This document shows positions 18,320 through 52,791 of a DNA stretch of 64,000 nt, one piece after another. Each line of letters starts with the position of its first letter. Position 1 is the stretch's first letter. A program made the position numbers and the translations under genes. This stretch comes from Calditrichia bacterium. Its GTDB lineage: Bacteria; Calditrichota; Calditrichia; JAJRVZ01. The stretch spans positions 22,603 through 86,602 of the forward strand of contig CAVZSQ010000027.1 of the NCBI GenBank assembly GCA_963777955.1, written 5' to 3'. The notes beneath the pieces are model-generated. The model made no database searches, had not been told where the DNA came from, and was given only the letters and a program-made list of their open reading frames with translations.

Positions 18320-19614
18320 ATGTCAACAGCAAGCATACAAACCCTGGGTTGCCGGTTGAATCAGGCCGAAAGCGCCATCATTGCCAAATCGCTTAAAAAT
18401 GCCGGTTATGAAATTGTAACTGATGATCAACCCGCTGATTTAACCGTTATAAACACCTGTACGGTCACCGAACAGGCAGATGCCAAATGCCGGCAGGCGG
18501 TGCGCAAAGCCTTACGCCTGCAACCGGATGCCTATGTGGCCGTGGTGGGCTGTTATGCTCAATTGTCCGTGGAAACAATTCGCAGCATTAAGGGTGTGGA
18601 CCTGATCATCGGCAATGAGCATAAATTAAAACTGGCGGATTATCTCAACGGATTACAAAAAGCAACGCGGCCGCAGGTGGTTCATTCTGCGAAAATCAGC
18701 CGTGCCGAATTTACCATCGAAAGTACCGGACTATATGCTAATGAAACCCGCGCAAATCTTAAGATCCAGGATGGCTGTAACTTTGTCTGCAATTTTTGTA
18801 TTATTCCCGCAGCCCGCGGACCTGCCCGCAGCAGAAAAATAAATGATATCGTGCGTGAAGCAGCCCAACTGGTCGAAGCCGGGCATCAGGAACTGGTACT
18901 CACCGGTGTGAATATCGGTACTTATCGTTCTGAAGATCACGATATCCTGACTGTAATCCGGGCGCTGGAAAAAATTGAAAATTTAAAACGTATCCGCATA
19001 AGTTCGATCGAACCTACCACCATCTCTGAGGATCTGCTCCGCTGCATGGCCGATTCGGAAAAACTTTGCCGGCATTTGCATCTTCCACTGCAGAGCGGCG
19101 ATGATCAGGTTCTGCAATCCATGCGCCGCAAGTACACTGCCGCCGAATTTGCCGATTTTATAATGATGGCTTATCAAACAGTTCCCGATATAGGCATCGG
19201 CACCGATGTTTTGGTCGGTTATCCCGGTGAAGGAGAACGTGAATTCATCAATACCAAGAAATTGCTGGCCGATCTGCCGGTTTCATATTATCATGTTTTT
19301 TCCTATTCCGACCGTAAGGGCACCGGCTCGTACAAATTGCAGCCCAAGGTTCCTGCATCAGGCTTAAGAAACTGCGTACCCGGATTATGATCGAACAGGG
19401 TCAGCGCCGAAGGTATACATTCTGTGAGAGTCACCTGGGTACCAACGCTATGGTTTTATTTGAGCAGCAACATGTTGACGGGAACTGGACGGGTTACACA
19501 GCAAATTATATGAATGTGGAAGTTAATAGTTCTGAAAACCTGCATAATAAACTACTGCCGGTAACATTTATAGGAATAACTGAACGAAGTATTGTCGGGA
19601 AATTAAAGGAGTAA
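18320..19614 (+). CDS. mtaB: Radical-SAM methylthiotransferase, MtaB-like (tRNA t6A37 methylthiotransferase), interrupted by a -1 frameshift near 19358-19362.
   Basis: MTTase N-domain (TLGCRLNQAES), radical SAM CNFVCNFCIIP (CxxxCxxC), and a TRAM domain are present. ORF 19387..19614 carries the TRAM end in another frame. KKLRTRIMIEQGQRR continues the upstream protein after a one-base deletion. Confidence 0.75.
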
Positions 19615-19903: not shown

Positions 19904-21242
19904 TTGGTAATAAAATTGAATACACCGGCCATAAATAACTCCACTGTTTTTATCGAAACTTACGGTTGTCAGATGAATGAATATGACACGGAAATCGTTA
20001 AGACTATTCTGAAAAATAGTGATTTTATTCTGACAGATAAACCGGAAGAGGCCGGAGTAATATTTCTGAATACCTGTTCGGTTCGCGAGAACGCGCATGA
20101 TACAATATACCGGCGTCTGCATGTACTTAAAAAACTTCGCCGGAAAAATAAGAATCTGGTAGTGGGCATTCTGGGTTGCATGGCCCAGAATCTGCGCAAA
20201 GAATTACTGGAAGCTGAAGATAGGCGTTGATCTTATTGCCGGTCCGGATAGTTATAAAAAACTGCCCGGAATAATCAGGAAAGTGCAGGAGACGGGGGAA
20301 AAGGATTTTGCCCTGACCCTCTCGGAATTTGAAACATACAGCGATATATTTCCGGTTCCTGATTGCGGCGTGAACGCCTGGCTGGCGGTGATGCGCGGTT
20401 GCGATAATTTCTGCACCTTCTGTGTAGTACCCTATACCCGCGGCCGTGAGCGCAGCCGCGATCCGCATAACGTCGTGGCAGAAGTGAAAAATCTCGCCGG
20501 CCGGGGATATGTACAGGTCACCTTGTTGGGTCAGAATGTAAATTCATACCGTTATGAAAATTATGAATTTGCCGATCTGATCGAAATGGTCAGTAAAGTT
20601 GACGGGATCCGCCGCATCCGCTTCATGTCGCCCCATCCCAAGGATTTCCCCGAACGGCTGATTGAAGTGGTCGCCGGGAATGAAAAGGCCTGTAAACATA
20701 TTCATCTGCCTGCGCAATCCGGTAATGACCGTATCCTGGAATTGATGAACCGCACCTATACCCGGCAGGATTATCTGGAGTTATGTGCCAAACTGCGGGA
20801 AAAAATACCCGGTCTGGTATTGACCACCGATATCATTGTAGGTTTTCCTACGGAGACCGATCAGGAATTTCAGGATACGCTGCAATTGCTGAAAACGATC
20901 GAATTTGATGCGGCATTCACTTTCAAATATTCGGAACGAAAAAACACCATTGCCGAACGTAAATATCCCGATGATGTAACTGAAGAAATAAAGACTGACC
21001 GCATTACAAAATTAGTCGCGTTGCAGCGCAAGATCAGTTACAAAAAGAATCAGCAGGAATTGGGCCGGGTCTATGAGGTGCTGGTGGAAGGGGCGGGTAA
21101 AAAACCAGGTCAGCTGCTCGGCCGGAATGATGGTAATAAGAAAGTTGTGTTTACAGGACAGGGGCAAAAGACAGGAGATTTTGTTCAGGTTAAAATAGAA
21201 GAGGTGACACCCAATACTTTAATAGGGTTTATAGCGAATTAA
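19904..21242 (+). CDS. miaB: tRNA-2-methylthio-N6-dimethylallyladenosine synthase MiaB, interrupted by a +1 frameshift near 20218-20225.
   Basis: ORFs 19904..20230 and 20283..21242 are collinear with MiaB ([33 protein letters not shown] in the shifted frame, radical-SAM [15 protein letters not shown] end). Confidence 0.85.
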
Positions 21243-21565: not shown

Positions 21566-23824
21566 TTAAAAATTATACCCCGCCGTGAAATAAATCCTGC
21601 TCACGAATTTATCCCACTGCCCGACGCTCTTCGAGCCCTGGCTGAAGATCAACTCGAAGGGGCCGATGATCGAAAGAAATTTTACACCCAGGCCAAATCC
21701 GTACAGATTTTGATCTATCTGCTCAATATCCATATACTTTTCGATCCGGTAGGAACCAGCGTTAAGGATCAGTTTAGGAAAAATATCCTTGCGGTATTGA
21801 TAGGTATAGTCTAAGCGAATGTAGGAGAAATTATTGCACTGCAACTGGTTGATCTCCAGTCCGACAAAAGAATTGCTGCCGCCTTTGAAGGGGTATTTGA
21901 ACATAGGCAGATCCTGGCGGGAATCGGTGTAATAGCCGTTCAGTCTCAGGGTATGCCTGCGGCCAAAGGTCTGGTAGAAATCAGCCGCGACCTGTAACTG
22001 ATAAAAGTTCCACTCCCAACCCTGGTTTTTTAAACTGGCGTTGAATTCGGCATCGATTTTAAATCCGCTCTTCGGGTACAATGGATCGTCAATCCGGTCC
22101 AAGACCAGCTCCGAGCGGATCAATCTTATATCATCGTTCCAGGTTGGGAAATAGGCGGGATTAAGTCCTTCAATGCTCGGATAAATATTTACATTTTCAT
22201 AATTGTATTCAAATTTAAGCAGTCCGATCCTGCCGATACTAAAAGCAAATCCGGCGGCAGCGATCCTGGAAATATCATCATACTGGGCAATCCGTCTGGC
22301 CGTTTCCAGACTGTAAATATTGGCCGGTATGTCTTTGTATCCTATCCGGACATAAGGGAAAACCGGCGTATTTAAACTTCGGGAAGGGTAAAAATAAATC
22401 CAATCGACTTTTAATAAACCTGCAAATTGAATGGTAAACTCTCCGCGCAAACCGGCGAAGGGAATATTGTTTGCCCGCGAACTTATAATACCAACCAGTT
22501 TATAGGCATCATCGTAGCGAAAACCTAACCGTAATTTCCTGAGTGTCACCTCTTTGACGTTAATATGCAGACGTATATAATTCTGTTTTACCGGATCCAG
22601 CGTATAACTGATCTCTTCAAAATAACCAAGACCGTACAAGTACTGAATCCGGTCGTGCAGAACCTGTTTATCAAAATTATCACCGGCTTTCAATCCCAGC
22701 AGATTATTTATAAAACCGAATGGTAAATTGCGGTTGCCGGATATGACAATTCCATAGATGACCGGGTTTCTCTTTTCTGTAACCATTTTATTTGCAATGG
22801 CCGGCTTTAAACCTGAAACAGAATCCGCTAAGAAATTTCCATTCCCGGCAGAAAAACAGGCGTTTTTAAGATCAATTAAGTCCTGTTTATGTTTTTGAGC
22901 AGCCTGCTCTCCCAACCGGATTATATTCTCCACTCTTTCACTTTCGAAGTCGGAAATGGAATAATCCCCCAGTTCCGGTTTGATCAGCACATCGCACAAT
23001 TCACTATTCAGCAACTGCCGTGAATAATCGGTGATGACCATGGTTTGACCCAGTACGCCGATGATGGATCGTAGATCTTTTTTCTTACGCAATGAGGTAC
23101 CGACATTGACTCCGATGATAATATCCGCACCCATCATTTTCGCTATATCAGCGGGAAGGTTATTGAGTAATCCACCGTCAATCAGCAGTGAATCTCCCCA
23201 TTCAACCGGGGTAAACACGGTCGGGATCGTCATAGTTGCCCGCATGGCCCTGGCCAGTGAACCGCTGCGCAGGATGACTTCCTTGCCGGTGATCAGATCA
23301 ACGGTAATACAGCGATAGGGGATGGGCAAACGGTCGAAATCGGTTATCGACTCAGCCGCTGAAGTTAAATCGGAAAATTTCAGAATAATATTTTGACCGT
23401 GGATCATCCCGCCGGGAATAACGGGAGTAATTCCGTCCAATCCCAGTTCCAGCTGGAATTTCCCGTCGTCTTTTTTCTCCAGGTAGGGTATTTTTTCCCG
23501 TACAGGCTTGTCGGAAAATAATTCCGGCCAGTTTAATTCCAGGGCAATCTTCTCGATCTCGTTTCCGCTGTACCCGCAGGCATATAATCCACCTACAATC
23601 CCACCCATGCTGGTCCCGACAATAAAATCGACCGGAATCTGCAGTGAATCGAGCATTTTCAGGATACCGATATGGGCCAGGCCGCGCGCTCCACCACCTG
23701 AAAGTACCAATCCGATTTTGGGAAGTGCATTTTGTGCCGAAATCGTTCCGCTGAGGCCAGGGATACAACTGCAGACGCAGATGCAAATGCAAAGCGTCAG
23801 GGTGATCCGGGTTTGACTCGCCAT
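21566..23824 (-). CDS. Patatin-like phospholipase fused to a POTRA/Omp85-type C-terminal beta-barrel (PlpD-like, type Vd secretion architecture).
   Basis: 752 aa. After the signal peptide come patatin motifs GGGARG (oxyanion), GTSMGG (GxSxG) and DGG (catalytic Asp). The C-terminal roughly 350 aa are strand-like and end in ...YFTAGYNF (beta-signal). Confidence 0.8.
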   Translation of the reverse strand: MASQTRITLTLCICICVCSCIPGLSGTISAQNALPKIGLVLSGGGARGLAHIGILKMLDSLQIPVDFIVGTSMGGIVGGLYACGYSGNEIEKIALELNWPELFSDKPVREKIPYLEKKDDGKFQLELGLDGITPVIPGGMIHGQNIILKFSDLTSAAESITDFDRLPIPYRCITVDLITGKEVILRSGSLARAMRATMTIPTVFTPVEWGDSLLIDGGLLNNLPADIAKMMGADIIIGVNVGTSLRKKKDLRSIIGVLGQTMVITDYSRQLLNSELCDVLIKPELGDYSISDFESERVENIIRLGEQAAQKHKQDLIDLKNACFSAGNGNFLADSVSGLKPAIANKMVTEKRNPVIYGIVISGNRNLPFGFINNLLGLKAGDNFDKQVLHDRIQYLYGLGYFEEISYTLDPVKQNYIRLHINVKEVTLRKLRLGFRYDDAYKLVGIISSRANNIPFAGLRGEFTIQFAGLLKVDWIYFYPSRSLNTPVFPYVRIGYKDIPANIYSLETARRIAQYDDISRIAAAGFAFSIGRIGLLKFEYNYENVNIYPSIEGLNPAYFPTWNDDIRLIRSELVLDRIDDPLYPKSGFKIDAEFNASLKNQGWEWNFYQLQVAADFYQTFGRRHTLRLNGYYTDSRQDLPMFKYPFKGGSNSFVGLEINQLQCNNFSYIRLDYTYQYRKDIFPKLILNAGSYRIEKYMDIEQIDQNLYGFGLGVKFLSIIGPFELIFSQGSKSVGQWDKFVSRIYFTAGYNF

Positions 23825-23985
23825 ATTTTTCCTGTTTTTACGGGTTTTTAAACTAAATGGTTATTAAAAACTTACAATAGTTTTAAATGATTATCAATCG
23901 ATGTTGATTTATTACCATTATTCAATTTAAATTAAAAGCTTTTAAAAAAGAACCGATTATAGTTGCTGATATTTATTAAACAGAG

Positions 23986-24357
23986 TTGTATTTAAAACAG
24001 AGGAATGGAATAGAGTATGCCTATTATTGTACAAACTGTTATCCTGCTGACCTTATCAAATGTGTTCATGACTTTTGCCTGGTACTCCCATCTGCGCAAT
24101 CTGAACAGCAAGGCCTGGTACATTGCGGCGCTGGCCAGTTGGGGTATTGCCTTACGGAGTACTTATTCCAGGTTCCGGCCAATCGTATCGGCTATACTCA
24201 ATTGAGTTTACCACAATTGAAAGTGTTGCAGGAAGTAATCACTCTGTCCGTGTTTGTACCGTTTGCTGTTTTCTATATGCGGGAACAGGTAAAAATGGAT
24301 TATATATATGCCGGTTTCTGTCTGATGGGTGCGGTTTATTTTATATTCAGAACCTGA
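23986..24357 (+). CDS. DUF486/DMT-superfamily small membrane protein, interrupted by a -1 frameshift near 24150-24160.
   Basis: ORF 24017..24205 (MPIIVQTVILLTLSNVFMTFAWYSHL...WGIA) and the frame of 23986..24357 (...EYLFQVPANRIGY...QLKVLQEVITL...) together reconstruct a roughly 115-aa DUF486 protein. Confidence 0.6.
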   Translation: MYLKQRNGIEYAYYCTNCYPADLIKCVHDFCLVLPSAQSEQQGLVHCGAGQLGYCLTEYLFQVPANRIGYTQLSLPQLKVLQEVITLSVFVPFAVFYMREQVKMDYIYAGFCLMGAVYFIFRT

Positions 24358-24372
24358 CCAACGAGAAAAATA

Positions 24373-24997
24373 TTATCGGGATTTTTTTGGATAATACTCG
24401 GGATAGAATTTTTCCAGGCAATCTCCGCATAAACCGTGTGAAAACTCGGCGGAGGAATGATCCCGGACATACTACTTCCACTTCGTGCCAGTACCCTCTG
24501 TCATCCCGCATTTTTTTACAGTGTGAACAAATCGGAATCAAACCTTTTAAAGTCTGAACATGAGCGAGGGCCTCGCGTAACCGGATAATCAGTTCTTCCC
24601 GTTCATTTTCCAATTCTTTGCGCGCGGTAATATCCCGCGACAGGCCAAAAGTGCCGATGATCTTGCCGACGGCATTATAAAGCGGAGCCTTGGTCACTGA
24701 AAACCACTTGCTGATTCCATTTACCGTTGTGATCAGTTCTTCCTTGTTCAGCAGGGGTTGACCGGTTTCAATTATTTTTTTTTCATCGACAAAAGCCTGC
24801 TGGGCATGCTCCTGCTTAAAAAAATCAAAATCGGTTTTACCGATTGCTTCTTCTGCTGAAGTCAAATTCAGAAAAAGCGATTGTGATTTATTGATTTTTA
24901 CAAATTTTCCCTGCTGATCTTTGAAATAAATATTGTCGGGAATATTTTCCATCAGGGCTTCAACAAAAAACTGATCGGAAAAGGTGATCTGTTTCAA
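24373..24997 (-). CDS. PAS-domain signalling protein with a C-terminal LIPICSxCKK-type zinc ribbon. A +1 frameshift lies inside the zinc ribbon near 24465-24470; the true stop is probably at 24373.
   Basis: PAS fold (FFVEALMENIPDNIYFKD...). The C-terminus is GLIPICSHCKKMRDDRGYWHEVEV. The alternate frame continues YVRDHSSAEFSHGLCGDCLEKFYPEYY, completing the known conserved motif. Confidence 0.7.
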
Positions 24998-25383
24998 TGC
25001 ATGATCCTGCTGTATTTATCTACAATTTGTTTTAAGCGTTCTTTAATTTTTATGGAATTATACGGTTTGGTGGTTCCGTAAGCCAAAAATTGGACTACAG
25101 CATAAAATTTCTGATTAATGGGCATATCCGATATCCAGATCACGCAGCCGCGCAGACGCAGTTTATTTTCACCGGGAATAGAGATTTCCACATCAAGAAT
25201 TTCACCCGGTGGAATCAATTTTTCGCTCGCAAAGCGCAAACTGCCCCAGGTGAGATCCTCCAGAGGCTCCGGCCCCAGAAACCGGTTGATGACTTTAAGA
25301 TCGTGAACAAAGCGATAAAAGATGGCAGCACCCTTGATTTTCACGCGTTCCAGGGCACGACGCTCTTCCTGTGTATCCACCAT
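24994..25383 (-). CDS. PilZ-domain (putative c-di-GMP binding) protein.
   Basis: 129 aa with an RxxxR motif (EERRALER) and a D-x-S/T-x-x-G motif (DLTWGS). It overlaps the downstream PAS gene by 4 nt (translational coupling). Confidence 0.55.
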   Translation of the reverse strand: MVDTQEERRALERVKIKGAAIFYRFVHDLKVINRFLGPEPLEDLTWGSLRFASEKLIPPGEILDVEISIPGENKLRLRGCVIWISDMPINQKFYAVVQFLAYGTTKPYNSIKIKERLKQIVDKYSRIMH

Positions 25384-47803: not shown

Positions 47804-48097
47804 ATGAGTAGAAAGATTACCAGTATCTTTTTAATTTGTTCTTTTCTCTTAATGGCGGGTTGTTATGCCATGAAACATACGGTTGGAAATGGGGCCCAGG
47901 GCAGCACCACAACCTCGGAAAGACAGTGGTATATATTGTTCGGGCTTGTTCCGCTGAACAATGTAGACTCAAAGCAAATGGCGGGTGACGCGAAGGATTA
48001 TGAAGTCACCACGTCGTTCGAATTTGTCGACCTGGTGATAGGGGTGTTCACTGGAATAATTTCCGTTCAACCGATGACCGTCACTGTCAAAAAGTAA
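47804..48097 (+). CDS. Bor/Iss-family-like small outer-membrane lipoprotein.
   Basis: 97 aa with an SD (gggaggtgag) and lipobox LMAGC. The C-terminal pattern (...FGLVP...VDSKQMAGDAKDYEVTTSFEFVDLVIGVFTGIIS...) resembles the lambda Bor lipoprotein family. Confidence 0.55.
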   Translation: MSRKITSIFLICSFLLMAGCYAMKHTVGNGAQGSTTTSERQWYILFGLVPLNNVDSKQMAGDAKDYEVTTSFEFVDLVIGVFTGIISVQPMTVTVKK

Positions 48098-48109
48098 TTG
48101 AATTGCGGG

Positions 48110-48140
48110 TGATTCCCGGGATATACCCGTGCTATAGCAT
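48110..48140. repeat. ATGCTATAGCACG motif, copy 3 (inverted orientation), downstream of the intact Bor-like gene.
   Basis: cccgggatatacccgtgctatagcat is the reverse complement of atgctatagcacgggtatatcccggg. Confidence 0.5.
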
Positions 48141-48308
48141 ATCTGTCTTGTATAAATTTTAAAATTATTTCGTATCGATATTGATTTTGTTGTAATCCGT
48201 CATTCGTGCTCCAGGCGACTTGCGGGTCACGTTCAACCCGATTCTCTACTGGTGGCCGTTTTTATTTTGATAAGGATTAAACTGATATATCAAACTTTGT
48301 GATTTTTT

Positions 48309-48734
48309 ATGGGAGGTGCTATCATGAAATGGTGGTGTTTATTATTGATAACTATTTTATTCATGTCTGTTGGATGTGAACGTAAAATTACAAAGATTGA
48401 AAAGGAGACGTCAATTTCAGGTGCAGATTTTCGAGAATATACTAAAAAAGGATTTCTTTTCACTCCATATTCGTACCCTGGGAAATATGAACCTGTGGGT
48501 TTAGTTATATTTTCTATTAGATCAGGTGCTGAATATAAATCAGCGACTTCAGGAAAGAAATCAAAGGATAATAGTTACCGTCCCCATAGCTCAGAATATT
48601 CTCCTGAATATAAAATCTGGTTTTATGATTATGTCGAGATGTCTCAGGTCATAGAATTTGCTTATAAAAAGGCAATCGAAATGGGTGCTAATGCTCTATG
48701 TGATTTCAAAATTTTTTCAAAACACTGTCTATGA
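48309..48734 (+). CDS. Hypothetical lipoprotein.
   Basis: Signal peptide with lipobox (MSVGC). No recognisable family. Confidence 0.4.
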   Translation: MGGAIMKWWCLLLITILFMSVGCERKITKIEKETSISGADFREYTKKGFLFTPYSYPGKYEPVGLVIFSIRSGAEYKSATSGKKSKDNSYRPHSSEYSPEYKIWFYDYVEMSQVIEFAYKKAIEMGANALCDFKIFSKHCL

Positions 48735-49216
48735 CATTTACAGGAAGGGGCTTACAGCCTCTGGGCGGCAAAATGAAAAGGATAAAGCAGGATTTAAATA
48801 ACGGTCTCCAGCAGGGAATCGAAAACCGCAAATTGCAGTGTATTCCTGGTTTGCTGATTGTCCTTACTCATACAACCGGTAAAAATATTATAACACAAAG
48901 CAGAGTTGAGGATTAATTAAAAATCTGACCACGGTAGAATTTATATCCCATGATGTCTCACTAAAATAAATTATGGATATTCCTGGCTGTTTTAAAAGTA
49001 TAAAATATTGTATTAATTTAAAATAGCGATGCAAATAACCAGGTATAAAATTGAATATACTAAATACAAAAATGATAGCAATAAAAAAATCGACCTGCGT
49101 TAAATTTATTTTTGATTAAATTGAATTAGTCTGATATTATGAATCAAATTATAAATGAACACCGTCAAATTAATTTGATTTTTTGACGTATAAAATTTAA
49201 ATTAAAGTTTTGAAAT

Positions 49217-49288
49217 TCCGGCGTGACTCAATGGTAGAGCGGGTGACTGTTAATCACTAGGTTGTAGGTTCGAGTCCTGCCGCCGGAG
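49217..49288 (+). tRNA. tRNA-Asn (anticodon GTT).
   Basis: Cloverleaf with a 7-bp acceptor stem (TCCGGCG/CGCCGGA), D-arm ...AATGGTAGAG, anticodon loop CT-GTT-AA, T-loop GGTTCGAGTCC, and discriminator G. A hairpin plus T-run terminator follows. Confidence 0.8.
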
Positions 49289-49308
49289 CAAAGTAAAAAT
49301 AGGAACTT

Positions 49309-49336
49309 AGGCCGTCCGGCAGGATGGCCTTTTTTA
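49309..49336 (+). terminator. Rho-independent terminator after tRNA-Asn.
   Basis: AGGCCGTCC-ggca-GGATGGCCT followed by TTTTTT. Confidence 0.65.
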
Positions 49337-49427
49337 TTGGAATTAGAGAAAATTGTAGTAAATTGAAATGTTCGGGAAATCATTCGGGAATACGTAAACT
49401 AATTATTAATCAAAAGGAGAAACACAA

Positions 49428-49541
49428 TGGGAGACAAAGGCGGTAAAAAGGATAAGAACAAGAGTCAAAAACAGCACAAAAGCAAACAGGATCAAAAGGA
49501 AAAAATGAAACAGGACAGGCTGCCGAAAAGAACCCAGTAAC
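49428..49541 (+). CDS. Small, highly basic Lys-rich protein (37 aa), hypothetical.
   Basis: Read directly from the sequence; it is below the ORF-track length cutoff. A strong SD (aaaaggaga) lies 7 nt upstream of the ATG. The translation is MGDKGGKKDKNKSQKQHKSKQDQKEKMKQDRLPKRTQ. Confidence 0.35.
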
Positions 49542-49617
49542 AGCAATCTGACTTAAATATGTTTACTTGTATGAGCCCGACCCGGACTCGGTAAAATCGA
49601 GTAAATATTATCTATTT

Positions 49618-49836
49618 TTATTTTTTAAGTAATTCACGCATCTGTCTGAGAATAAGCGCTATTACAAAAATTAACAGAATGGCTGCGAATTCCAGAAGTC
49701 TTCCTGCTTCATAGGGCAGCTGAGAGAGTTGCCAGCCAAATAGACCTAAAATTTTGTCCAAAAATGCCAGAAATAATAGTAAAAAAGCACATACAAAAAA
49801 AATACGGGAAACAACACTGCTGAGTTTATCAAACAT
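49618..49836 (-). CDS. Small membrane protein (2 TM), hypothetical.
   Basis: 72 aa hydrophobic ORF. Confidence 0.35.
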   Translation of the reverse strand: MFDKLSSVVSRIFFVCAFLLLFLAFLDKILGLFGWQLSQLPYEAGRLLEFAAILLIFVIALILRQMRELLKK

Positions 49837-49855
49837 ATTTGTTCTCCTTCAGTAA

Positions 49856-50149
49856 TTAATTTCTTGGAATAGCTATCGCGTTTGCAGCGAGATTATAATG
49901 ATGGAAATCAAGACGTACCATTCTAATAGTACCCTGATTATCAAGAAACCATAACTGGGCCCAGCCGGGGTGTGCGCCATTTGCAGTTACTGCGAATAAT
50001 GGACCGTATTCAGATGGTATCCCTTTCAGATCAGTGATTTTAATGTTCTCTAATTGGGTATTTGATGCAGTTTCTCCGGGAATACGCTCGCAGGTGCTGA
50101 TTAAGAAAATGAGTAAAACCAGGAGAGTTATAATAAAAACACGATTCAT
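49856..50149 (-). CDS. Hypothetical lipoprotein.
   Basis: Signal peptide with lipobox (LISTC). The start is probably the Met at 50149. Confidence 0.4.
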   Translation of the reverse strand: MNRVFIITLLVLLIFLISTCERIPGETASNTQLENIKITDLKGIPSEYGPLFAVTANGAHPGWAQLWFLDNQGTIRMVRLDFHHYNLAANAIAIPRN

Positions 50150-50482
50150 TGGCTGGAGTAACACTTTGCACCTCCTTTTTTATGCTTGTGGTAGTTAAGA
50201 ATTCCGGGTTGAATTATTAATTATTTAAAATTATATGTTTTATATAAATAAAATTCGAAATAGCAACCGTGCTAAAAATCGTAAAGATATGTCAGTTATT
50301 AATGGAAAATCTTTTAAAGAATACAATAATTGATAATCTTTAGCAATGAAAAGTAATATTTTATCCAGCACTCCCTGATCTGAATCCGCTGCTTCTTTTC
50401 GAAAATATTTTAATAGTGGTTTAAAAGTTACGATTTTCTGCCGATAATTGGTTTAACTTAGAGAGCCAAAAACGGGGGTTTC

Positions 50483-51055
50483 ATGAAACGAGTTTTTTCA
50501 TTTATTATAATGGGTTTTATTTACAGCCAGGTAGTGTTCGGTCAACAACAGAATGTGGCCGTGATTAATTTTGAAGCGCTGGGATTATCACAGGTCGAAG
50601 GAGCCGCCCTGACCGACCGGTTCCGGTCGGAATTATTTAAAACCGGGAAATTCACGGTGCTGGAACGCGATAAAATGGATGAGATCCTGGTCGAACAGGG
50701 GCTGCAGCAGACAGGCTGTACTTCCAGCGAGTGCCTGGTCGAAATGGGAAAATTGCTCAATGTCCATCAGATCTTCGCCGGTTCAGTATCTCAATTTGGA
50801 AATATATTTTCCGTTACCGTCCGCTTAGTCGATATTCAAACCGGGAAAATTCAGGATTCAAATTCCCAGGACTTCAGTTCCGGAAAAGAAAAATTATTGA
50901 CCGATGGAATGAAGGCGGTTGCCTTATATTTTGCCGGAATAAAAACCGTGATCGCAGCTCCAAGAGTTGAACAAGCGGTGACTACCAGCAGTGATACCAG
51001 TGCCCTTAAACGTGAAATGCTTAACAAGATGTCGGCCAGAAGAAGAACAAAATAG
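50483..51055 (+). CDS. Periplasmic protein with a CsgG/LpoB-like fold (hypothetical).
   Basis: Signal peptide, then the pattern VAVINFEALG...LTDRFRSELFKTGKFTVLERDKMDEILVEQGLQQTG...GKLLNV..IFAGSVSQFG...VTVRLVDIQTGKI, characteristic of CsgG/LpoB/TolB-N-like domains. Confidence 0.4.
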   Translation: MKRVFSFIIMGFIYSQVVFGQQQNVAVINFEALGLSQVEGAALTDRFRSELFKTGKFTVLERDKMDEILVEQGLQQTGCTSSECLVEMGKLLNVHQIFAGSVSQFGNIFSVTVRLVDIQTGKIQDSNSQDFSSGKEKLLTDGMKAVALYFAGIKTVIAAPRVEQAVTTSSDTSALKREMLNKMSARRRTK

Positions 51056-51060
51056 ATTAT

Positions 51061-51120
51061 CAAATTCCAAAATCCAAATTCCAAAATCTAAAAGCTGAAT
51101 ATATTAAGGCCAATTCCAAT
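51061..51120. repeat. Tandem heptanucleotide repeat (AAATTCC/AAAATCC)n, family member 3.
   Basis: caaattccaaaatccaaattccaaaatc ... ccaattccaat, starting 5 nt after the stop at 51055. Confidence 0.7.
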
Positions 51121-51223
51121 TATTTTTTAATAATTTTGAAATTAATAACCCCGTTATATTCGTTCAATATAAATAAATGTGTGATTTTTCTGATAATGAC
51201 AATATAATTTTAAGGAATGGATC

Positions 51224-51490
51224 ATGCCAAAATTCCATATAGAAGTTCCGCATGAGGCGGATGAAACCCTCTGCAAGCAGGCCATCAAAATATTCCTGCA
51301 GAGTGGTTCGCATTTCCTGACCCATGCTGAATGGGGTTGCCTGGATGGTGATCATAATGCCTGGATCATCGCCGAAGTGGATTCGAAGGAAGAAGCCCGG
51401 GGAATTCTTCCTCCGGCTTACCGGCACCAGGCTAAAATAGTCCAGATTACCAGGTTTACTGCAGCAGATATTGCTGAACAGCACCAGTAA
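51224..51490 (+). CDS. Hypothetical small protein.
   Basis: 88 aa ORF with an SD (aaggaatgg). No recognisable family. Confidence 0.35.
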   Translation: MPKFHIEVPHEADETLCKQAIKIFLQSGSHFLTHAEWGCLDGDHNAWIIAEVDSKEEARGILPPAYRHQAKIVQITRFTAADIAEQHQ

Positions 51491-51494
51491 AGTA

Positions 51495-51632
51495 AAATCC
51501 AAATTCCAATGACCAAATTCCAAATTCCAAGAATCAAATTCCAAACAAAAAATTCCAGATTCCAAAATCCAAATTCCAAACAAATTGAGAAATTTGGTAA
51601 TTTGGAATTTGGTAATTGGTATTTGGCATTTT
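51495..51632. repeat. Long heptanucleotide repeat array. Forward units (AAATTCC) are followed by inverted units (TTTGGAA/TTTGGTA), giving an imperfect long hairpin. Family member 4.
   Basis: aaatccaaattccaatgaccaaattccaaattccaagaatcaaattccaaac...attccagattccaaaatccaaattccaaac...aatttggtaatttggaatttggtaattggtatttgg. Confidence 0.75.
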
Positions 51633-51750
51633 CCCTCTTGCATCCGCATCAAAAAGTAAATAACTTCAAAACTTTATTTGTCTTAACGGCAAGACCAAGA
51701 CGGACAATTTAAAATCCTGGCAATACATACATAAGGGTAAGAGTGGTACA

Positions 51751-52791
51751 ATGAAAAAAATACCTGTAGGAATTCTGGGTGCTACCGGCAGCGTGGGACA
51801 AAAGTTCATTCAACTGCTGGCCGATCATCCTTATTTTGAAGTTAGCGAAGTCGCCGCCTCGGACCGCTCGGCGGGTAAAAATTACGCCCAGACCGTGAAC
51901 TGGTTTCTGGAAACACCCATACCGGAAAATGTTGCTGAACTGGAAATTAAACCGTGCCAGGCAGATCTGAAATGTAAAACTGTTTTTTCTGGTCTGGATT
52001 CCAGCGTGGCCGGCGAGATCGAAACGCAATTTGCCCGGGCCGGTTATACGGTAATTTCGAATTCAAAAAATCACCGTATGGATGACGAAGTACCGCTGCT
52101 GATCCCGGAAGTAAACGCCGCTCATCTGGCCCTGCTCAGCGGTAAGCGTCCCTACCCCGGTCAGATCGTGACCAACCCGAACTGCTCGGTGATCGGCCTG
52201 GTGCTGGCCCTGAAACCGCTGCACGATGCCTTCGGCTTGGAACAGGTGAACGTGATCACCATGCAGGCCTTGTCGGGCGCCGGTTTTCCGGGAGTGGCCA
52301 GCCTGTCCATAACCGAAAATGTGATCCCTTATATCGCTGGGGAAGAAGAAAAAATGGAAAAAGAACCTCTGAAGATATTGGGAAAACTGGAAAAGAACAG
52401 TGTGCACTTTGCTGATTTCATCATCAGCGCCCAGTGCAACCGCGTAGCGGTGCTGGACGGTCACCTGGAAACCGTGCAGGTAAAACTAAAACACCAGGCC
52501 CGGGAGCAGGACATCATCGATTGCTGGAATAAATTTAAGGCTGAACCGCAGGAACTGAATTTGCCGATGGCTCCGCTGCAACCCATACGTTACTTTGAGC
52601 GGGTCGATTATCCCCAGCCGCGCCTGCATCGCAATATCGATAAGGGCATGGCCGTTTCGGTGGGACGACTGCGGCCCTGCAATATCTTTGATTATAAATT
52701 TGTCATGCTGTCGCATAATACCATCCGCGGCGCTGCCGGAGGAACAATCCTCTGCGCCGAACTGATGAAAGCCAAAGGTCTGTTAACCTGA
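51751..52791 (+). CDS. asd: Aspartate-semialdehyde dehydrogenase.
   Basis: NAD(P)-binding GATGSVGQ, active-site Cys block (NPNCSVIGL), and overall collinearity with ASD. Confidence 0.9.
   Translation: MKKIPVGILGATGSVGQKFIQLLADHPYFEVSEVAASDRSAGKNYAQTVNWFLETPIPENVAELEIKPCQADLKCKTVFSGLDSSVAGEIETQFARAGYTVISNSKNHRMDDEVPLLIPEVNAAHLALLSGKRPYPGQIVTNPNCSVIGLVLALKPLHDAFGLEQVNVITMQALSGAGFPGVASLSITENVIPYIAGEEEKMEKEPLKILGKLEKNSVHFADFIISAQCNRVAVLDGHLETVQVKLKHQAREQDIIDCWNKFKAEPQELNLPMAPLQPIRYFERVDYPQPRLHRNIDKGMAVSVGRLRPCNIFDYKFVMLSHNTIRGAAGGTILCAELMKAKGLLT

Follow-up and report, generated by a model that had tools for sequence, protein, structure and literature searches.

A PlpD-family patatin-like/Omp85 fusion protein, intact by sequence, in the genome of a Calditrichia bacterium

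The PL-Omp85 proteins, in which a patatin-like (PL) phospholipase and an Omp85-type outer-membrane β-barrel are parts of one polypeptide, have PlpD of Pseudomonas aeruginosa as their prototype. Their alternative label, type Vd, reportedly goes back to a 2010 proposal in which the patatin domain, as a passenger, is set free at the cell surface. This surface-release model was repeated in a 2014 survey of Omp85 proteins and in the paper on FplA of Fusobacterium nucleatum (PMC5724010). It has since been contested by Hanson et al. 2024 (PMC11116518), who found the PlpD patatin domain to be exclusively periplasmic and PlpD to be an outer-membrane homodimer, with a lid (residues 89–126) that crosslinks to strand 1 of both its own and the neighboring barrel. 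In the same study, deletion of plpD raised the levels of many phospholipids and AlphaFold gave a matching docked conformation for distant homologues, and the authors argue for a family role in outer-membrane lipid homeostasis. In the literature collection searched, we found nothing on PL-Omp85 proteins after 2023 beyond that study. Here we describe a gene at positions 21566–23824, minus strand, of a 64-kb stretch of DNA from a Calditrichia bacterium (contig CAVZSQ010000027.1; the whole stretch is hereafter called the window), which by sequence is a catalytically intact member of this family.

The gene is a single open reading frame (ORF) of 752 aa that begins with ATG, as called by an ORF finder and exactly as described in an initial annotation made from the sequence. 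Its complete coding sequence, stop codon included, spans 21566–23824, as judged from the ORF list and from end-to-end alignment with homologues; all features of the gene given below lie on the same minus strand. The start codon is backed by relatives, as proteins of 87% and 77% identity start there and align end to end. An identical protein (P0001) has already been deposited in NCBI/ENA without a name. Pfam analysis revealed three domains, all above curated cutoffs: Patatin at residues 39–228 (4.5e-31), POTRA at 356–425 (1e-07), and Omp85 at 510–752 (28.8 bits against a cutoff of 24). We modeled the protein with AlphaFold2 (AF2), using a 56-sequence homologue alignment on which the family profile was also built. 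The model has a mean predicted local distance difference test score (pLDDT) of 84.9 over the whole chain and a predicted template modeling score (pTM) of 0.77, and it consists of an N-terminal helix, an α/β lipase domain, a low-confidence linker, one POTRA domain, and 16 strands. Read from the N-terminus, the architecture is thus a signal peptide followed by a patatin-like lipase whose dyad is Ser72/Asp216, then a disordered linker, a single POTRA domain, and a 16-strand Omp85 barrel with a C-terminal β-signal. Because the Pfam domains, the match to PlpD, the fold match to TamA and BamA, the AF2 model, and the invariant dyad all agree, we assign the protein to the PL-Omp85 (PlpD) family, every computable defining feature of which it carries.

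The patatin-like phospholipase domain comprises residues 33–309 (22898–23728), as found by phmmer, the family profile, Foldseek, and Pfam. Over these residues phmmer aligned the protein with the PlpD crystal chain 5fqu at an E value of 4.7e-73, and the 56-member family profile matched the PlpD crystal chain at 1.4e-102. Foldseek superimposed the N-terminal half of the model on PlpD (5fya) with a template modeling (TM) score of 0.92, a root mean square deviation (rmsd) of 2.1 Å, and 39% sequence identity. After PlpD, the next patatins in the search of solved structures (CapV-like, ExoU, and VipD) reached only 4e-4 or worse; given this gap and the TM score, the lipase domain is related to PlpD rather than to other patatins. 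All four catalytic blocks of the patatin fold are present. Block I is the oxyanion-hole motif GGGARG at residues 43–48 (23681–23698), with GGARG at 44–48 inside it, and block II is the nucleophile elbow GTSMG at residues 70–74 (23603–23617), which aligns with the GTSMG of PlpD and provides the catalytic Ser72. Block IV is DGG at residues 216–218 (23171–23179), which contains the catalytic Asp216, and the remaining block is ATMTIP at residues 196–201. In the 56-sequence alignment, residues G43–G45 and G48, S72 and G74, and D216, G217, and G218 are invariant. The segment that aligns with the PlpD lid region containing FLVKQKISF is KFQLELGLDGITPV, residues 122–135 (23420–23461). This lid ranks with the best-conserved segments of the family, with the consensus K-[YF]-Q-[LIV]-E-[LF]-G-[LI]-x-G-x-T-P-V, and in the AF2 model its residues 125–130 and 133–135 form strands.

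The Omp85-type β-barrel comprises residues 429–752 (21569–22540), as supported by AF2, Foldseek, the family profile, and Pfam, and the AF2 model contains exactly 16 strands between residues 429 and 749. A Foldseek search with the C-terminal half of the model matched TamA (4c00) at an E value of 1.1e-19 over 420 columns with an rmsd of 3.3 Å, and dozens of BamA structures were also matched, the BamA and TamA hits together lying between 1e-19 and 1e-18. The family profile matched BamA chains across the POTRA domain and barrel at E values from about 1e-12 to 7e-15. Strand 1 of the barrel (RKLRLGFRYD, residues 429–438) equals the lid in conservation. Further along the barrel is a loop-6-like motif, GGSNSFVGL, at residues 648–656 (21857–21883), for which the family consensus is GG[PAS]xxF[VI]G, with G655 invariant and F653 and G648 nearly so. 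We take this motif to be a candidate equivalent of the Omp85 loop-6 motif (V/I)RG(F/Y) of BamA, but it lacks the Arg of that motif, presumably a hallmark of BamA, TamA, and FhaC. The chain ends in a C-terminal β-signal, YFTAGYNF (residues 745–752; 21569–21592), which overlaps the last barrel strand of the model (residues 740–749). Residues Y745 and G749 of the β-signal are invariant and the terminal Phe is found in 45 of the 56 sequences. The catalytic motifs GGGARG, GTSMG, and DGG and the terminal YFTAGYNF had all been pointed out in the initial annotation, which proposed a fusion of patatin to an Omp85 barrel belonging to the PlpD-like family labeled type Vd. The Pfam, PlpD, AF2, and Foldseek results bear out that assignment: POTRA and Omp85 domains are found above cutoff in the C-terminal region, the barrel is present, and Ser72 and Asp216 are conserved without exception across the alignment.

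The lipase and barrel are connected by a poorly conserved linker, residues 327–351 (22772–22846; pLDDT below 50 in the AF2 model), and by the single POTRA domain, residues 355–425 (22550–22762). In the model, which agrees here with the Pfam match, the POTRA domain adopts a β-α-α-β-β arrangement (strand 355–362, helices 369–376 and 386–398, and strands 402–413 and 416–425). The closest full-length relatives outside the immediate subclade, P0003 (77% identity) and P0004 (74%), are 57–80 residues longer, as are most proteins of the next tier, and the difference is a 62-residue block placed between the linker and the POTRA domain. By Pfam this block is a second POTRA domain, P0003 harboring two POTRA stretches, and the AF2 model of P0003 (pLDDT 85.1, pTM 0.76) contains a second β-α-α-β-β unit at residues 337–407. 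At the DNA level, the window and the 87% relative L015 show a clean, in-frame gap of 186 nt against the 75% relative L003 (L003:3503–3688, the stretch of the extra unit at residues ∼337–407 in P0003), and the junction at which relatives hold the extra POTRA domain falls inside the linker, at about 22772–22783. P0006 likewise lacks the second POTRA domain. In a neighbor-joining tree, which is rough and carries no bootstrap support, the window protein and P0002 are nested within a two-POTRA clade, and elsewhere in this tree the one- and two-POTRA states switch several times. Because of this nesting and the clean gap, the one-POTRA state of the gene is probably secondary, having arisen in this lineage through loss of one POTRA domain by a 186-nt deletion. 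The family is described with a single POTRA domain both by Hanson et al. 2024 (PMC11116518) and in the 2014 Omp85 survey, and we met no mention of a two-POTRA form, although no exhaustive search for it was made.

Comparison with PlpD shows that both proteins have the same domain order (signal peptide, patatin, linker, one POTRA domain, and 16-strand Omp85 barrel), the same four patatin blocks, and the same Ser/Asp dyad. However, there are differences. The lipase domains are only about 39% identical (the barrel halves were not directly compared), the host here is an environmental Calditrichota-like organism rather than a proteobacterial pathogen, the signal peptide here is Cys rich, and the nearest relatives here contain two POTRA domains. 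FplA, a type Vd phospholipase A1 that we compared by description (PMC5724010), has a matching architecture with a Ser/Asp dyad and a triple-Gly oxyanion hole, but its organism is host associated, some strains cleave it, and it binds phosphoinositides of the host. TamA and BamA share with the protein the POTRA and 16-strand barrel fold, but they contain three and five POTRA domains, respectively, and no enzyme domain. Identity with BamA or TamA was rejected on the basis of the single POTRA domain and the patatin domain, and the BamA equivalog TIGR03303 scored 51.4 bits against a cutoff of 297.15. The soluble patatins (RssA, CBASS CapV, ExoU, and VipD) resemble the protein in their patatin fold and in both the oxyanion and the nucleophile motif, but they are cytoplasmic or injected and are without a signal peptide, POTRA domain, or barrel. 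Identity with RssA was rejected (NCBIfam score of 98 against a cutoff of 272, together with the architecture), as was a CBASS or other anti-phage patatin effector (CBASS_lipase, 34.4 against 200; DS2_1, 27.6 against 400). A role in defense is also contradicted by the signal peptide, the barrel, and neighboring genes for tRNA modification and membrane proteins. Finally, OMPLA (PldA) of Escherichia coli is an outer-membrane phospholipase that acts as a dimer in lipid homeostasis, a functional analogy drawn by Hanson et al. (PMC11116518). It differs in having an unrelated fold, in which a 12-strand barrel is itself the enzyme, and in acting on outer-leaflet lipids, and it gave no sequence or structural match to the protein.

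Homologues of the protein are numerous. Among 8,000 scored candidates, more than 6,600 had E values of 1e-10 or better, the threshold of the search, and Patatin was found in all of the best 120, with POTRA and Omp85 also present in all but a few of these. Names given to the relatives include "patatin-like phospholipase family protein" and "BamA/TamA family outer membrane protein," and one homologue from a Calditrichia genome has been named "patatin-like phospholipase PlpD" by NCBI. The nearest genomes are from uncultured Calditrichota (75% and 52%), followed by Melioribacteraceae and Bacteroidales, and the nearest homologues also include some from KSB1 and Bacteroidota metagenome genomes. These affinities place the window in an environmental bacterium of the FCB group, probably one of the Calditrichota. 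The gene adds an example from the Calditrichota lineage to a known family and is no surprise for the specialist. It carries little weight on its own, as thousands of members of the family have already been sequenced, the structure of a lipase domain has been solved, and the prototype has been characterized. The useful correction concerns the mechanistic label. Annotators and first-pass readers still label such proteins secreted type Vd lipases and virulence factors, and caution is needed here, as the best current evidence is for a periplasm-facing enzyme that manages the lipids of the outer membrane.

For the protein described here we favor, with moderate confidence, a periplasm-facing mechanism in lipid homeostasis over true secretion, because the PlpD experiments, the strong conservation of both the lid (122–135) and barrel strand 1 (429–438), the pTM of 0.77, the housekeeping setting of the gene, and the non-pathogenic host all point in that direction. 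The conservation of lid and strand is compatible with a docked-lid model, and a pTM of this size despite the disordered linker suggests that, in the model, the position of the lipase is fixed relative to the POTRA domain and barrel. By the general route of outer-membrane protein biogenesis, the precursor would cross the inner membrane via Sec and signal peptidase I would cut after Ala30. By homology to PlpD, the lipase domain would not be secreted but would stay periplasmic, docked beneath the barrel and its POTRA domain, and the protein would probably be a homodimer. The conserved amphipathic lid would then reach the conserved barrel strand 1 and the enzyme would take the sn-1 acyl chain off phospholipids of the outer-membrane inner leaflet, which would give it a housekeeping function in lipid homeostasis rather than that of an exported toxin. 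The abundance of the family in free-living, non-pathogenic bacteria of the FCB group fits this housekeeping view.

The same architecture is, however, that of the proteins for which the classical type Vd autotransporter model was proposed. In that model the Omp85 barrel, once inserted, or a hybrid with the β-barrel assembly machinery (BAM), serves as the channel through which the patatin passenger is threaded. The passenger is then displayed at the cell surface, possibly with cleavage in the linker, and as a secreted lipase it acts on other cells or frees fatty acids from environmental lipids. The initial annotation had presented release of the passenger at the surface as established, and type Vd is still counted among the secretion classes in reviews. 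The roughly 25-residue linker at 327–351, being disordered and poorly conserved, could be a cleavage site, and a PlpD fragment was found in culture supernatant in the original PlpD work, as that work is summarized in PMC11116518. Against this, direct topology mapping places the PlpD domain in the periplasm (PMC11116518), and a folded, dimerizing α/β domain of 31 kDa could pass a narrow barrel only by unfolding in the absence of ATP, as is argued in the same study, in which purified PlpD and FplA were also not toxic to Galleria larvae. FplA, reported to be surface exposed and accessible to proteinase K when expressed in E. coli, was not detectable on the surface of Fusobacterium itself (PMC5724010). 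Given also the housekeeping gene setting and environmental host in the present case, we consider surface display of the lipase unlikely here, albeit a serious contender.

Some of these observations, namely the supernatant fragment of PlpD and the surface exposure of FplA in E. coli, weigh against the periplasmic assignment that we favor, and three further points do so as well. First, the topology rests on the work of one laboratory on one distant homologue, with a lipase domain about 39% identical. Second, the lid does not carry the literal Ile-Ser-Phe of its PlpD counterpart and reads L-G-L and then D-G-I where the two align. Third, close relatives contain a whole extra POTRA domain between lipase and barrel, an arrangement not obviously compatible with a lid that reaches the barrel. 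If the two-POTRA forms hold the lipase one domain further from the barrel, the lid-into-barrel contact of PlpD would not be universal. A further reading is that POTRA number is evolutionarily labile, with a recent, clean loss of the barrel-distal POTRA domain here, and that the family comprises two mechanistic classes. We regard this reading, taken as a whole, as doubtful and well short of probable, but were it true, this lineage would offer a natural before-and-after pair for testing the roles of the POTRA domain and lid. More generally, sister pairs with one and two POTRA domains could help test the positioning of the lipase under the barrel.

The signal peptide comprises residues 1–30 (23735–23824). 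Arg6 lies in its n-region, the h-region is long and rich in Cys, Ile, and Val, and signal peptidase I probably cuts at ISA|Q. It was judged by inspection, from relatives, and from AF2, with residues 7–22 forming the hydrophobic stretch. In the AF2 model residues 2–19 are helical and residues 23–31 form a low-confidence stretch. The A|Q junction is kept in relatives, which read TSA|Q, TMA|Q, SFA|Q, and SRA|Q at this site. Part of the h-region, L-C-I-C-I-C-V-C, is encoded by an imperfect hexanucleotide tract at 23771–23794, identified by a period-6 scan and composed of the units CTTTGC, ATTTGC, ATCTGC, and GTCTGC. The repeat noted in the initial annotation, at the looser coordinates 23768–23800, is thus real. 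The tract has 15 of 18 period-6 matches, a level that no other 24-nt stretch of the 64 kb reaches and for which shuffles give an expectation of 0.02, and the degenerate pattern TGCRTYTGCRTYTGCRTYTGC occurs once in the window compared with 0 times in 100 shuffles. DNA alignment shows that 18 nt in the window and in L015 are not present in L003. Because these 18 nt are carried by the window and the 87% relative and not by the 75% relative, local duplication of a codon pair for Cys and Ile/Val probably gave rise to the tract.

Such a nonrandom, lineage-restricted insertion could in principle be functional, either as a slippage locus that tunes export through the length of the signal peptide or, through a lipobox (VCSC, with Cys20), by giving a lipid-anchored PL-Omp85 protein. 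The initial annotation had called the tract a potential slippage tract. Its four units are imperfect, with only two adjacent units identical, and Tandem Repeats Finder, run on 23500–24000 at its lowest threshold (score of at least 30), reported no array. The 6-nt unit keeps the reading frame, so the tract cannot switch the gene on and off. In addition, tract length is equal in three lineages of 87–89% protein identity, the window, L015/P0002, and P0006, which differ by point substitutions only: the tract region reads LTLCICICVCSC in the window, LTLCLRICICIG in P0002, and LTLCVCICICSC in P0006. A phase-variable contingency locus was rejected on these grounds. As to lipidation, Bacteroidetes and Chlorobi do have lipidated Omp85 proteins (PMC4104836), VCSC at residues 17–20 fits a relaxed lipobox pattern, and P0006 has ICSC at the matching place. 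The PROSITE-style lipobox rule nevertheless fails, and the lipoprotein reading was rejected; neither P0002 nor any more distant relative has the candidate lipobox, relatives other than P0002 and P0006 all lack the cysteines, and the A|Q site is conserved. We therefore hold either function for the tract to be highly improbable. Instead, the Cys-rich repeat would be a lineage-specific expansion of 18 nt that is removed together with the signal peptide.

The gene stands alone in its surroundings, being convergent with MiaB downstream and divergent from an upstream gene for a small DMT_6 membrane protein. More distant neighbors encode RadA, MtaB, a PAS-domain protein, an M49 peptidase lipoprotein, a DUF2179 protein, and a CsgG-like protein. 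Neighbors are held in common only with the closest relatives, MiaB and MtaB with L015 and the PAS gene with L003, and in L001 and L004 the gene lies beside unrelated housekeeping genes. No conserved operon partner was found among the compared loci (L001, L003, L004, and L015), and the gene shows neither a mobile-element signature nor a compositional anomaly. This setting fits a self-sufficient, single-polypeptide outer-membrane protein and not a virulence or competition island. Indeed, with housekeeping neighbors, an environmental host, and no conserved partner, nothing in the setting suggests the role in virulence or competition that the initial annotation had associated with such proteins.

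Three flanking genes within 4 kb are each split between two frames: MtaB (18320–19611, with the frame break at about 19354–19360), MiaB (19904–21242, break at about 20199–20218), and the DMT_6/DUF486 membrane protein (24017–24357, break at about 24150–24205). In view of these breaks, the PL-Omp85 gene might itself be decaying or misassembled and have no current function. To this we give hardly any credence, as the 2,259-nt ORF is unbroken and colinear with its homologues from the start to the terminal Phe, every invariant residue of the family is kept, and the AF2 model is confident. The flanking breaks are themselves probably indel errors of the assembly, since L015, the 87% relative, has unbroken MiaB and MtaB genes, though the split genes could be pseudogenes. 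The presence of assembly indels nearby suggests that single-base conclusions on the repeat tract need caution.

Upstream of the gene, a conserved block, TTGTAAGTTTTTAAT, is located at 23862–23876 on the minus strand, ∼40–50 nt before the ATG, and is a tentative candidate for a promoter element. The block is almost invariant in the window, L015, and L003, and the flanking intergenic sequence diverges. It presumably resembles the −7 box of Bacteroidota, TAnnTTTG. Promoter and terminator scans gave nothing above background, and a σ70 scan gave only weak matches at 23946–23917.

Two regions outside the gene are of note. The PAS-domain protein upstream (216 aa) overlaps the stop of a 129-aa ORF without a Pfam match (24347–25383, minus strand), and in L003 a PAS-domain ORF (1290–1913) also lies upstream of the PL-Omp85 gene as the sole neighbor common to that locus and the window. 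The stretch at 48000–52000 has the lowest G+C content of the window, 0.36–0.39 compared with about 0.45, and may be an island or simply a region rich in intergenic sequence. It holds the sole tRNA of the window (tRNA-Asn, 49217–49289, plus strand) and several small ORFs predicted to encode lipoproteins or membrane proteins.

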